This document shows, piece by piece, positions 52,804 to 63,673 of a stretch of DNA of 64,000 nucleotides. Below the pieces are notes generated by a model. That model ran no database searches, was not told where the DNA came from, and saw only the letters and a program-made list of their open reading frames with translations. The stretch is from assembly GCF_051903065.1 (NCBI RefSeq), contig NZ_CP178438.1. One strand, 5' to 3'. This DNA comes from Escherichia coli (GTDB taxonomy: Bacteria; Pseudomonadota; Gammaproteobacteria; Enterobacterales; Enterobacteriaceae). How positions within the stretch are numbered: the first letter of the stretch is position 1; every line of letters starts with the position of its first letter. The position numbers and the translations under genes are program-made.

Positions 52804-54582
52804 TTATGTGTTTAACAACTCATATTTCTTAATCTTGCGATAGAGCGTAGCAATGCCGATGCCCAGTTCATCAGCAACTTGCTTCTTGCTGTTATGACGT
52901 GAAAGCGCCTCGCGGATCATTTGCTTTTCCATCTCCTCCAGCGCCGTGCCGCCCGCATCATCGAGTGACAGGTGTGCCTCAGTGACCTCTGTTACATCAC
53001 TTTGCTCCGTTGTGCCATTATTCAGCAGATTTGGCGGCAATAGCGTGCTGTCGATAACTTCACCTGAAGGAACAACGTTAACCAGATATTCCATCAAATT
53101 GCTTAACTCGCGCAGGTTTCCGGGCCAACGATGCTTACGCAATATTTCGACGACATCGGGAGCAATGCCAGGATAAACCGATCCCAGACGACGGGTATGC
53201 AGATGTAAAAAGTAATGCACCAGTAGTTCAATATCTTCCTGACGTTCACGCAGCGGTGGCAGAGTTATCGGGATAACATTAAGTCGGTAGAAGAGATCTT
53301 CGCGGAATTTACCTTCGGCAATGAACTGGGCCAAATTCTGGTTAGTTGCAGAAATGATGCGAATGTCGACTTGTATTGGGCTACTGGCACCAATCGGCAG
53401 AATTTCACGTGCCTCAATAGCGCGCAGTAATTTAGCCTGCAACATTAATGGCATATCACCTATTTCATCGAGAAACAGCGTGCCCGTATTCGCCGCCTGA
53501 ATCAACCCTGTTTTACCGTTGGCAGAAGCGCCAGTAAATGCGCCTTTAACATAACCGAACAGTTCGCTCTCCAGAAGCTGCTCCGGAATCGCGGCACAGT
53601 TGATAGCAATAAAGGGTTTATTCCGTCTTCCGCTCAACTTATGGATTGCACGGGCGACAACTTCTTTACCCGTGCCGCTTTCACCAACCACCATAACGCT
53701 GGATGGGCTGGGTGCAATACGGCTAATGAGTCGTTTTAATTGCCGCATAACACGGCACTCGCCAACCAATTGTTCAATATGCGGTTCATCAGGTGCATTT
53801 GCTACAGAAAAACTGGTATGCGATTGGTGAAACGCCATTAAAAATAATTGTCGGCCCTGAATGTTATGCAATTGACCAATGATTAATTCACTTTTATCGT
53901 CCCACGAAACAATATGCTGCATATGTCCATGGGTAAAATTACTCTCAAATGTTAATGGTCTGAAACGGATAGGTTTCCCAATAATATTATTTTGCACAAC
54001 ACCAAGTGTTTTTAAGGCAGTCTGATTAACAAACTGAACCCGATTTTCGTCATCTACAACTAATACGCCCTGATCCATATTATCGATCATGGTCGCGAAT
54101 ATTTTACTGATGTTATCTCCTGGCCCCTGATCCTCCAGAAGTTTCGAAACAAAAATGGTGGATATATGACGAACATAATCAGAAAATTCGCGTAAATTAT
54201 CACTGATATGCTCTTGTTGCTCGTGGGTAACGGCAATCAAACTTATCACCCCAACACAACGATCCTGTAAAATGACAGGCGTACCCAGAAATGCTTTTTC
54301 GCGGCAATTTTCTTTACTATCGCAACCTTCGCAAAGGGGATCGAAGCGAGACTGTGTCACAACTTTTTCAGTTTTCGTTTCCAGGACGTGGCGGAGCAGG
54401 CGTGAGTTGCCGCTCAACTGGCGACCAAGAAACTTCCCATACGCGCCAGTTCCGGCGACGCGACACAAGTTTTCATCAACGATCTCAACCTCAAGCTGCA
54501 AAACGCTGGCAAGCATTCTGGCAAAACGCTGAATTGTCGGTTGAATTTGCATCAATACTGACTGCGTAGTAGCAAGCTCCAT
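52804..54582 (-). CDS. ygeV: Sigma-54-dependent transcriptional activator (bacterial enhancer-binding protein)
   Basis: 592-aa ORF with AAA+ sigma-54 interaction domain (Walker A GESGTGKE; GAFTGA motif) and C-terminal HTH. Confidence 0.9.
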   Translation of the reverse strand: MELATTQSVLMQIQPTIQRFARMLASVLQLEVEIVDENLCRVAGTGAYGKFLGRQLSGNSRLLRHVLETKTEKVVTQSRFDPLCEGCDSKENCREKAFLGTPVILQDRCVGVISLIAVTHEQQEHISDNLREFSDYVRHISTIFVSKLLEDQGPGDNISKIFATMIDNMDQGVLVVDDENRVQFVNQTALKTLGVVQNNIIGKPIRFRPLTFESNFTHGHMQHIVSWDDKSELIIGQLHNIQGRQLFLMAFHQSHTSFSVANAPDEPHIEQLVGECRVMRQLKRLISRIAPSPSSVMVVGESGTGKEVVARAIHKLSGRRNKPFIAINCAAIPEQLLESELFGYVKGAFTGASANGKTGLIQAANTGTLFLDEIGDMPLMLQAKLLRAIEAREILPIGASSPIQVDIRIISATNQNLAQFIAEGKFREDLFYRLNVIPITLPPLRERQEDIELLVHYFLHLHTRRLGSVYPGIAPDVVEILRKHRWPGNLRELSNLMEYLVNVVPSGEVIDSTLLPPNLLNNGTTEQSDVTEVTEAHLSLDDAGGTALEEMEKQMIREALSRHNSKKQVADELGIGIATLYRKIKKYELLNT

Positions 54583-54951
54583 AGCTTTACCTTCCAGACT
54601 TACTTAAAAGTCGATCATTGAAGACGTTGATGGTTCACAGATCATGATGATATTAACTCAGGCGAAATTGGCTTTGATAAAAACATAAGATTTTTATCAC
54701 TTTCTAATGAAATTATGGAAGAGATATCACATTTCTATATCAATATGAGAATTACGGCGGTGAGTTTATCAAACTGACGAGGGATAGCCTGCCCCTTTAT
54801 CTTATTTCTGATACTTAGCAGCAAATAAATAACGCAATAAAAAAAGCCAAACGTTTTCGTATTTTACAAACAACCGGAAGCTAGCATCAATTTGTGATCA
54901 ACCCCACACATTATCCGTCAAATTAGTCTTTTGCAGCCCCGTGGATAATTC

Positions 54952-54967
54952 TGGCACACTTATTGTT
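54952..54967 (+). promoter_or_regulatory. Candidate sigma-54 (-24/-12) promoter upstream of ygeW
   Basis: TGGCACACTTATTGTT resembles TGGCAC-N5-TTGC with GT in place of GC at -12, about 90 bp upstream of the ygeW start and divergent from ygeV. Confidence 0.3.
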
Positions 54968-62855: not shown

Positions 62856-62902
62856 ACCAACCTCAATGGATATCCTTTCAGTAACCCGGAATACCCGGGC
62901 CG

Positions 62903-63673
62903 CTAATTCACAAATCTGCGCGCGATTGCAGGATGTTCTTGTATATCGCCCAGCCAGATTGCCTCTACGTCATGTTGTTGCAGCGGTTGAAGGAGCTCGC
63001 TTTGTGCAATCGCATTCTCACATTGAGAAAAACGGTTAATGAACCAGACTCGCCGACAACCTTGCGGTACGTTTTTAAACGCCCCCTGAGGGTGGCGAAC
63101 CAGCGCAACGAGATCGCTCAGTTGCAAGGTTGCATCAGGTGTTAACCCGGTAATATCAGCAAACTGCGACCAGCGATGGACATTTTCTGTGCTCACTTTC
63201 GCGCCCAAAGTATGTCCTCCCATCACAGCAATCACGCAGCAACTGCTTTTGGGTATGCAAGGTTCGTGCTCATCAGGCGCTTTTAACGGCATTCCACGCG
63301 AGCCATCTGCTTCAATGAGAATTACGTCACACTCTGGTCGTTGCACCAGTGCATCAATCGCTTCTGGCGTAAATCCCTGCACTTTTCCCTGGTTCGCTTT
63401 CCAGCTGTGAAAACAAAATGAAATGGGGGATGTAAGAGACGCATGAGGAAGCATGGCGGGATCACGACAGAAAACCACGGGCCAGTGTGACTTTGGCATA
63501 AACATATGTGTCGTCGTAGTGATTAACACACGCCTGCCGCGAGTCTGGAGCAGTTCTGCTAGCCAAAAAAGCAAGCTGGTTTTCCCCCCAGCACCAACAA
63601 CAGAAATCACAGTGGGACGTTTCTGCGCACCTAAATCAATGAATAATGCCGATGGGTCAACTATACTTTTCAC
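62903..63673 (-). CDS. yqeC: Putative selenium-dependent hydroxylase accessory protein YqeC
   Basis: 256-aa ORF with P-loop-like VVGAGGKTS. Confidence 0.8.
   Translation of the reverse strand: MKSIVDPSALFIDLGAQKRPTVISVVGAGGKTSLLFWLAELLQTRGRRVLITTTTHMFMPKSHWPVVFCRDPAMLPHASLTSPISFCFHSWKANQGKVQGFTPEAIDALVQRPECDVILIEADGSRGMPLKAPDEHEPCIPKSSCCVIAVMGGHTLGAKVSTENVHRWSQFADITGLTPDATLQLSDLVALVRHPQGAFKNVPQGCRRVWFINRFSQCENAIAQSELLQPLQQHDVEAIWLGDIQEHPAIARRFVN

Follow-up and report, generated by a model that had tools for sequence, protein, structure and literature searches.

The DNA analyzed here, a 64,000-nucleotide stretch of an Escherichia coli chromosome (the window), contains a 10.9-kb span in which ygeV, encoding a bacterial enhancer-binding protein, is divergent from ygeW-ygeX-ygeY-hyuA-yqeA. 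This region very probably comprises the activator YgeV and the lower-pathway operon of the anaerobic uric-acid (2,8-dioxopurine, 'yanthine') locus, the operon being controlled by sigma-54 and YgeV. The promoter having been mapped in 2015 and the pathway worked out between 2023 and 2025, this finding is already known and ordinary, and the initial annotation of the span, made from the sequence alone, adds nothing beyond the published record. The additions of the present work are (i) the architecture of YgeV, (ii) its match to the clostridial regulator DioR, (iii) the E. coli candidate boxes, (iv) a site for the cAMP receptor protein (CRP), and (v) the pattern of hairpin conservation.

The locus lets E. 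coli and many gut anaerobes clear uric acid, which humans cannot degrade, and engineered overexpression strains reduce the serum urate of mice (PMC12507026). With the enzymes solved, interest shifts to native control: the signal of YgeV, its binding places and the reasons for the switch-off by glucose and growth medium. The boxes, the CRP sites and a cysteine motif in the GAF domain of YgeV are cheap and concrete targets for studying this control and for constructing probiotics or biosensors that respond to urate.

The gap between ygeV and ygeW carries the -24/-12 element CTGGCACACTTATTGTT. The TGGCAC-N5-TTGT sequence pointed out in the initial annotation is present at 54952-54966, and we scored it with a sigma-54 weight matrix built from 38 published intergenic E. 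coli sites (Bonocora et al.), the four intergenic sites of this locus being excluded. The element scores 15.96 bits, compared with a training median of 16.6, and is the second-best of 128,000 window positions; about 0.0026 sites as good are expected by chance on that strand of the 475-bp gap. It coincides with the RpoN site OS30 of chromatin immunoprecipitation sequencing (ChIP-seq), 80 nt upstream of ygeW and of low enrichment (Bonocora et al. 2015, PMC4591121), and with an in-vitro RpoN peak obtained in 2021 by genomic SELEX (PMC8743547). The 17-mer of K-12 is identical to that of the window and lies at the same position, ~80 nt before ygeW; these studies, which also place sites at xdhA, ygfK and ygfT and within yqeC of the same locus, reported neither productive ygeW transcription nor activator sites. 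The best sigma-54 matrix match of the whole window is CTGGCACGCGATGTGCA in ptrA (450-466, minus strand, 16.4 bits), which is the published intragenic site IS33.

For interspecies comparison, one enterobacterial orthologous locus was retrieved, that of Enterobacter sp. Bisph1 (hereafter Enterobacter), whose YgeV is 69% identical. A full-length YgeV search of genome contigs was dominated by generic AAA+ peptides (e.g. FLDEIGDM) and yielded this one true enterobacterial orthologue, and a protein homologue search with YgeV brought up near-identical E. coli entries only, which do not serve for footprinting. The ygeW element is identical at 20 of 21 positions in Enterobacter, the non-consensus -12 sequence TTGT included, while the remainder of the gap is only about half conserved. 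TTGT at -12 is also found in the pspA and pspG promoters (PMC4591121). Judged by its sequence, matrix score and conservation, the ygeW element is a genuine sigma-54 (-24/-12) promoter element.

Other sigma-54 promoters flank it. ChIP-seq identified further sites at xdhA (OS29), ygfK and ygfT (PMC4591121). An intragenic promoter in yqeC that drives yqeB matches the published site IS34 exactly; it was validated by promoter mutation, reverse-transcription quantitative PCR and Western blot, the mutation abolishing YqeB protein (PMC4591121), and its transcript has a 5' untranslated region (UTR) of ~400 nt. This promoter lies within the initially annotated span and is absent from that annotation. 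In Enterobacter, ygfK is preceded by the sigma-54 element CTGGTGTGATTGTTGCT, found in extra contig sequence that was fetched to test the prediction. The ygfT element of E. coli, outside the window (L082, 16607-16623), is TATGCCCATTTATTGCA, one base off the published K-12 sequence TATGCCCGTTTATTGCA.

A search for inverted repeats, suggested in the initial annotation, located candidate palindromic boxes, which that annotation lacks, upstream of the sigma-54 promoters of the locus. Within 89 kb of contiguous E. coli sequence used for box searches, the 12-mer CTCATATTGATA has exactly three copies, upstream of the xdhA, ygeW and ygfT sigma-54 promoters; a palindromic variant, TTATCATAATGATAA, precedes ygfK. 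The TATCA-N3-TGA core occurs 13 times in the same sequence (2.8 expected), and nine of these copies belong to this locus, seven of them spread over the four regions upstream of promoters and the other two in ygeX, where one palindrome is counted on both strands. The latter palindrome, TATCATCTTGATA (56582-56594; core TATCA-N3-TGATA), is ~280 nt into ygeX with no sigma-54 element nearby.

An independent ranking was obtained with a matrix whose training set was limited to 15 published DioR sites from clostridia (PMC6615313 Table S3; consensus TTATCA-N3-TGATAA). This matrix replaced a symmetrised one from our own E. coli sites that had proved noisy in the AT-rich ETT2 island. Its top four matches in the 89 kb are in the ygfT-uacT gap (21.0 bits), in the ygeV-ygeW gap (box B, 18.6), in the mocA-ygfK gap (17.4) and in yqeC (17.2), and matches are enriched in the four promoter gaps (P = 2e-5). 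In the 21.8-kb Enterobacter locus the top five matches all lie within the two relevant gaps. Both ygeW boxes are retained there at homologous positions, box A as TCATATTGATA and box B as a palindromic counterpart; box B is also invariant in six E. coli strains, and box C is partly conserved in Enterobacter. The Enterobacter ygfK gene has an identical 15-bp palindrome ~150 bp upstream of its sigma-54 element. Distances from the boxes to predicted start sites are ~-330 (box A), -233 (box B) and -205 (box C) for ygeW, ~-129 and -151 for xdhA, ~-201 for ygfK, and ~-198 for ygfT, and fall in the range published for such activators (PMC6615313).

Since boxes and sigma-54 promoters of the same kind stand before xdhABC, ygfK-ssnA-ygfM-xdhD and ygfT, and yqeB has its own sigma-54 promoter in yqeC, the whole locus looks like one YgeV regulon. 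The palindrome in yqeC, TTCTCA-CAT-TGAGAA, lies ~224 nt downstream of the predicted yqeC-internal start site, with ~170 nt left to the yqeB ATG, and may serve as an activator site positioned downstream of its promoter, from which YgeV would activate yqeB transcription. We do not claim as a site the perfect 9-bp inverted repeat TGATAAAAA-N7-TTTTTATCA (54675-54699), which is invariant in the six E. coli strains and not conserved in Enterobacter; its half-sites resemble the YgeV box, and its spacing differs.

YgeV has the complete core of a sigma-54 activator, in agreement with the initial assignment of ygeV as an enhancer-binding protein gene divergent from the ygeW operon. Pfam recognizes the AAA+ sigma-54 interaction domain (PF00158, E = 8e-71) with the Walker A motif GESGTGKE, the GAFTGA loop and an AAA lid, followed by a C-terminal Fis-type helix-turn-helix (PF02954, HTH_8, E = 1e-13). 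An AlphaFold2 model of residues 1-265 (confidence score pLDDT 86.8) contains a GAF domain at ~10-150 and a PAS domain at ~158-250. A Foldseek search with this N-terminus gave the GAF-PAS sensor of E. coli DhaR, DhaR(N) (PDB 4lrx), as the best full-length match, along with PDE6 GAF domains and NifA; a sequence search of the PDB returned weak PAS matches only, so that GAF was recognized by fold search. The N-terminal module is common to 862 cluster representatives, mainly proteins of ~580 residues, and near-invariant positions in an alignment of 91 sequences are D36, G46, C84, C87, C93, P102, G111, F136 and N186. The GAF domain thus carries a C-x2-C-x5-C motif (C84-x2-C87-x5-C93) plus D36. As cited in other papers, Iwadate & Kato 2019 reported that ygeV is needed for uric-acid use and ygfT expression, and within the YgeV iModulon the expression of ygeWXY and of hyuA rises and falls together with that of the other sigma-54 operons.

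By predicted architecture, type of upstream activator site and target genes, YgeV matches the clostridial DioR group, which was defined within Clostridiales only, has GAF-PAS-AAA+-HTH_8 architecture and is listed with function 'Unknown' (Nie et al. 2019, PMC6615313). The predicted DioR targets are dpaL, ygeW-ygfK-ssnA-ygeY, yqeC..yqeB and xdhABC (PMC6615313), and the same families (dpaL, ygeW, ygeY, ygfK, ssnA, yqeB/C, xdh) make up the E. coli locus. Both systems have predicted TTATCA-N3-TGATAA sites, with a TTCTCA/TGAGAA variant, ~130-330 bp upstream of sigma-54 promoters, and the E. coli ygfK box CTTTATCATAATGATAAGG is one base off the Clostridium botulinum DioR site ATTTATCATAATGATAAGG. Unlike the DioR regulon, E. 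coli has mixed TATCA and TGAGA half-sites, added CRP sites, and genes split into more operons. Firmicute homologues of YgeV other than the DioR proteins CBO2889, CTC00072 and CD3186 are 35-39% identical to the E. coli protein over the full length. Firmicute loci in which a YgeV homologue adjoins uricolytic genes have clusters of such boxes ahead of strong sigma-54 promoters, and the recognition helix LGIGIATLYRK is common to homologues with TTATCA-type boxes. One Bacillota homologue (L006, 5745-5784) has TTCCCA/TGGGAA instead of TTATCA/TGATAA half-sites and the helix LGISKTTLYRK; this difference may reflect co-variation of protein and site.

The enzymatic content of the operon is firmly assigned. 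YgeW, YgeX, YgeY, HyuA and YqeA have been reconstituted in vitro as the lower pathway, with mutant data in addition, and in the upper steps XdhD-YgfM reduces uric acid to 2,8-dioxopurine, after which YgfK and SsnA dearomatise and open the pyrimidine ring (PMC12507026; bioRxiv 10.1101/2025.04.24.650524). The window's ygeW, ygeX, ygeY, hyuA and yqeA are the E. coli enzymes characterized in these papers, and yqeB and yqeC are the selenium-cofactor markers discussed in them; native regulation is not dissected there, and the regulation of uric-acid metabolism genes is called poorly understood. YqeB and YqeC mark the selenium-dependent molybdenum-hydroxylase trait, and SelD is required in Clostridium sporogenes. 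All of ygeW, ygeX, ygeY, hyuA, the carbamate kinase gene, ygfK, ssnA, xdhD-ygfM and yqeBC are present at the locus. The suggestion that the neighbourhood resembles purine catabolism thus proved right, the link being to selenium-dependent molybdenum hydroxylases. The statement that its substrate and inducer are not firmly established no longer holds: the reductive uric-acid / 2,8-dioxopurine pathway was reconstituted in 2025, and in E. coli uric acid is a strong inducer of ygfK and ygfT. From these enzyme assignments and this induction it follows that the substrate is established and that uric acid is the physiological inducer.

Glucose represses uric-acid degradation, and this repression is bypassed once a promoter cassette replaces a 'native Crp-binding site' in the ygeV-ygeW gap (Li et al. 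2025, PMC12507026). We found a CRP-like site, absent from the initial annotation, between the boxes and the ygeW promoter. It is invariant in the six E. coli strains, and its Enterobacter counterpart, TGTGATAAGGATCACT, is centred at -77.5. Upstream of ygfK, a perfect TGTGA-N6-TCACA lies near -96.5, two helical turns further upstream than that of ygeW. The integration host factor (IHF) is the usual DNA-bending factor at sigma-54 promoters; CRP, in helical phase at -76.5 (ygeW) and -96.5 (ygfK), could be the DNA bender in its place.

In the proposed mechanism, sigma-54 RNA polymerase would wait at the -24/-12 element (54951-54967) without opening the DNA, as a closed complex, and YgeV would bind the palindromic TTATCA-N3-TGA(T/G)AA boxes ~200-330 bp upstream of ygeW. 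Under anaerobic conditions, and given uric acid or a pathway intermediate, ATP hydrolysis by YgeV would open the promoter via the GAFTGA loop. CRP-cAMP near -76.5 probably makes expression depend on carbon status, whether as a bender of the DNA or as an activator of ygeV. The transcript would span ygeW-ygeX-ygeY, with partial read-through past a terminator-like hairpin into hyuA-yqeA. Of the encoded enzymes, HyuA opens the hydantoin/dihydropyrimidine ring, YgeW phosphorolyses one ureido group, YqeA uses the carbamoyl phosphate to make ATP, YgeY takes off the second ureido group, and YgeX forms pyruvate and ammonia from 2,3-diaminopropionate. Sigma-54 binding, the enzyme functions, the uric-acid induction (ygfK, ygfT), the glucose repression and the yqeC-internal promoter are drawn from published work; we infer the YgeV boxes, the role of CRP, the start-site positions, the hairpin read-through and the identity of the ligand.

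The internal structure of the transcript deserves separate treatment, as internal attenuation had been suggested from hairpins after ygeW and before hyuA. Both hairpins exist, and a third lies in the ygeX-ygeY gap. A GC-rich stem directly followed by a U-run is found at 58789-58813, before hyuA, and at 61196-61221, between the convergent yqeA and yqeB, and is lacking at 56255-56276 and 57518-57540. Fold z-scores of the three gap hairpins against shuffled sequences are modest (-1.1, -2.8 for the ygeY-hyuA hairpin, and -1.7). The Enterobacter locus has hairpins in the same three gaps, kept by position and not by sequence, none with an adjacent U-run. The 5' UTR of ygeW shows no folding advantage over shuffled sequence (z -0.36), no leader peptide was seen, and an Rfam search at E <= 1 gave one chance match only and no riboswitch. 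The attenuation part of the suggestion is only partly right, the ygeY-hyuA hairpin alone having a U-tract. Because the Enterobacter hairpins differ in sequence and have no adjacent U-runs, the three gap hairpins fit intercistronic stem-loops of the mRNA better than regulated attenuators. Partial termination is likely only before hyuA, with read-through that we infer; this fits the annotated ygeWXY unit together with a hyuA gene that is still co-regulated.

Several observations weigh against control of this operon by sigma-54 and YgeV. The -12 dinucleotide of the ygeW element is GT instead of GC, the ChIP signal over threshold is only 3-fold at ygeW, compared with 11 at xdhA and 26 at ygfK (PMC4591121), and among the six E. 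coli strains compared UPEC69 has two changes inside the element. Box A has one substitution in O157:H7, moderate DioR-matrix matches occur also in the AT-rich ETT2 island, and variable sites are not significantly depleted within the proposed motifs of six E. coli gap alleles (4 of 33, 6.8 expected, P = 0.16); the assignment of the boxes to YgeV is a prediction from sequence alone. The YgeV iModulon has its peak activity in ethanol-treated baeR/cpxR mutants and in no purine condition. No paper in the literature searched, which did not include Iwadate & Kato 2019, directly ties ygeW transcription to rpoN or ygeV. The CRP site might just as well act on a sigma-70 promoter of ygeV; relative to the candidate for that promoter it lies at ~-46.5, a distance that fits neither CRP class.

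One alternative is that the ygeW element is a weak, mostly non-productive sigma-54 site, that ygeWXY is transcribed from a CRP-dependent sigma-70 promoter, and that YgeV acts only elsewhere (ygfK, ygfT). For many sigma-54 sites of E. coli no productive role is known (PMC4591121), and low ChIP enrichment, the non-consensus -12, glucose repression, a conserved CRP site 50 bp upstream of the element and a sigma-70-like match near the ygeW ATG (55034-55062) are all consistent with it. Against it, the sigma-54 element is almost fully conserved in Enterobacter amid unconserved flanks, ygeWXY and hyuA vary in concert with the remaining sigma-54 operons of the iModulon, the best DioR-type boxes sit in the ygeV-ygeW gap, and the sigma-70 scan found no more matches than in shuffled sequence. 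We consider this alternative unlikely. Still less probable is the reading of the initial annotation, an uncharacterized purine or heterocycle pathway of unknown substrate and inducer that is partly under internal attenuators: older RefSeq labels such as 'D-phenylhydantoinase' and 'putative selenate reductase' persist and intercistronic hairpins do exist, but the substrates and products of YgeW, YgeX, YgeY, HyuA and YqeA are established in vitro and by mutants, ygfK and ygfT are inducible by uric acid, and only one of the three hairpins has a U-tract, with neither a leader peptide nor an Rfam riboswitch and with a 5' UTR fold no better than shuffled.

In another description, which likewise counts against the preferred reading, ygeV is the indole-induced virulence regulator IsrR (PMC9426417). 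If YgeV were mainly an indole-responsive regulator of the LEE island, its uricolytic neighbours would be incidental; the indole induction of ygeV in enterohaemorrhagic E. coli is among the strongest of any gene, and a Citrobacter rodentium isrR mutant is attenuated (PMC9426417). LEE control is of no use to the source strain or to most E. coli, and the regulator, boxes and uricolytic genes travel together from Clostridia to Enterobacteria, which leaves this explanation very improbable as the main role. Pfam gave no Response_reg match in YgeV, and its N-terminus models as GAF plus PAS; as YgeV has no receiver domain, the label 'orphan response regulator' (PMC9426417) does not fit. The IsrR role and the uricolytic role of YgeV are not mutually exclusive.

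Beyond sigma-54/YgeV control of the uric-acid operon, which we prefer, a broader joint reading is possible but distinctly tentative. YgeV would be the enterobacterial member of a cross-phylum module (DioR-type activator, boxes, sigma-54 promoters, uricolytic genes) moved as a unit between Firmicutes and Enterobacteria, with a metal or redox centre in its GAF domain, CRP as the bender, and the yqeC palindrome acting from downstream. The Cys/Asp motif of the GAF domain could be such a centre, gating activation by oxygen or redox state beside or in place of a purine ligand (urate, 2,8-dioxopurine). NorR of E. coli, a sigma-54 activator with a mononuclear iron site in its GAF domain, is a precedent for a metal centre, although the D36 / C84-x2-C87-x5-C93 motif of YgeV is not that of NorR. 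DhaR, the closest structural match of the YgeV N-terminus, differs in activating a sigma-70 promoter and in sensing partner proteins. In layout, the locus resembles PrpR/prpBCDE of E. coli and Salmonella, where a sigma-54 activator gene is divergent from its operon and catabolite repression is CRP-dependent; the divergent arrangement, a non-receiver sensor, a CRP site in the shared gap and glucose repression are common to both, whereas PrpR has a PrpR_N sensor binding 2-methylcitrate instead of GAF and a different upstream activator site.

Table. Positions of genes, promoters, candidate sites and hairpins in the window
Feature	Position	Strand	Remarks
Two candidate boxes upstream of xdhA, ATTTATCACATTGATTTTA and core CTCATATTGATA (48921-48932)	48896-48936		First box: DioR matrix 13.9 bits, rank 7 in 89 kb
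xdhABC sigma-54 element CTGGCGTAAATCTTGCC	49030-49046	+	Matrix 12.0 bits; ChIP-seq OS29 (PMC4591121)
GC-rich terminator-like palindrome between convergent xdhC and ygeV	52771-52794		
ygeV, GAF-PAS-AAA+(GAFTGA)-HTH_8 enhancer-binding protein	52804-54582	-	Pfam, AlphaFold2, Foldseek
Candidate box A, core TCATGATGATA	54638-54656		~60 bp from ygeV ATG
Candidate box B, CTATATCAATATGAGAATT	54735-54753		DioR matrix rank 2 in 89 kb
Weaker candidate box C, TATCAAACTGA	54767-54777		
CRP-like site TGTGATCAACCCCACA	54893-54908		Centre ~-76.5 from predicted ygeW start; 1 mismatch to TGTGA-N6-TCACA
ygeW sigma-54 -24/-12 element CTGGCACACTTATTGTT	54951-54967	+	Predicted start site near 54977
ygeW, carbamoyltransferase	55061-56248	+	Phosphorolysis of 2-ureido group to carbamoyl phosphate
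Hairpin, ygeW-ygeX gap	56255-56276	+	9 bp, no U-run
ygeX/dpaL, diaminopropionate ammonia-lyase	56306-57502	+	2,3-Diaminopropionate to pyruvate and ammonia
Hairpin, ygeX-ygeY gap	57518-57540	+	9 bp, no U-run; not in the initial annotation
ygeY, M20 hydrolase	57560-58771	+	Cleaves 3-ureido group of albizziin
Terminator-like hairpin, ygeY-hyuA gap	58789-58813 (stem-loop 58789-58808)	+	8 bp, then TTTTT; 15 nt before hyuA ATG
hyuA, hydantoinase	58824-60209	+	Opens ureidomethyl-hydantoin / 5-ureido-dihydrouracil
yqeA/arcC, carbamate kinase	60257-61189	+	ATP from YgeW-made carbamoyl phosphate
Strong terminator hairpin between convergent yqeA and yqeB	61196-61221		z -6.2
yqeB, XdhC-like selenium-dependent Mo-cofactor accessory protein	61230-62855	-	
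yqeC, selenium cofactor accessory protein	62903-63673	-	
Candidate box palindrome in yqeC	63013-63031		DioR matrix rank 4 in 89 kb
Intragenic sigma-54 promoter in yqeC driving yqeB, TGAGCACGAACCTTGCA	63256-63272	-	Exact match to published IS34

The span is 100% identical to several complete genomes, and the locus was found in 5284 of 5426 complete E. coli genomes. In the RefSeq annotation of an identical strain the order is xdhABC, ygeV (minus strand), ygeW, dpaL/ygeX, ygeY, hyuA, arcC/yqeA, yqeB and yqeC (both minus strand), and mocA; outside the window, mocA is followed by ygfK-ssnA-ygfM-xdhD, xanQ, guaD, ghxQ, ygfS-ygfT and uacT. The gene order and coordinates given initially agree with this annotation and with the list of open reading frames, and Pfam confirms the named families: carbamoyltransferase, pyridoxal-phosphate enzyme, M20 peptidase, amidohydrolase and carbamate kinase, as well as XdhC-like YqeB, YqeC, and Sigma54_activat with HTH_8 in YgeV. 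The ygeV-ygeW gap (54583-55057) is indeed 475 bp if measured to the first ATG; a second ATG 3 bp further, at 55061, is backed as the ygeW start by RefSeq and by the Enterobacter orthologue.

The gap of the source strain (54583-55060) is a minority allele, with at least 99% identity in 146 of 5180 genomes and 95-99% in the others, and its divergence among E. coli exceeds what the flanking genes suggest. Elsewhere in the window, actS/ygeR (~47931-48686) has an internal stop and is annotated as a pseudogene in the identical RefSeq strain, where the ETT2 type III secretion island (~36000-44600) is degraded, with an IS903B insertion, an internal stop in sctN and a truncated ygeH.

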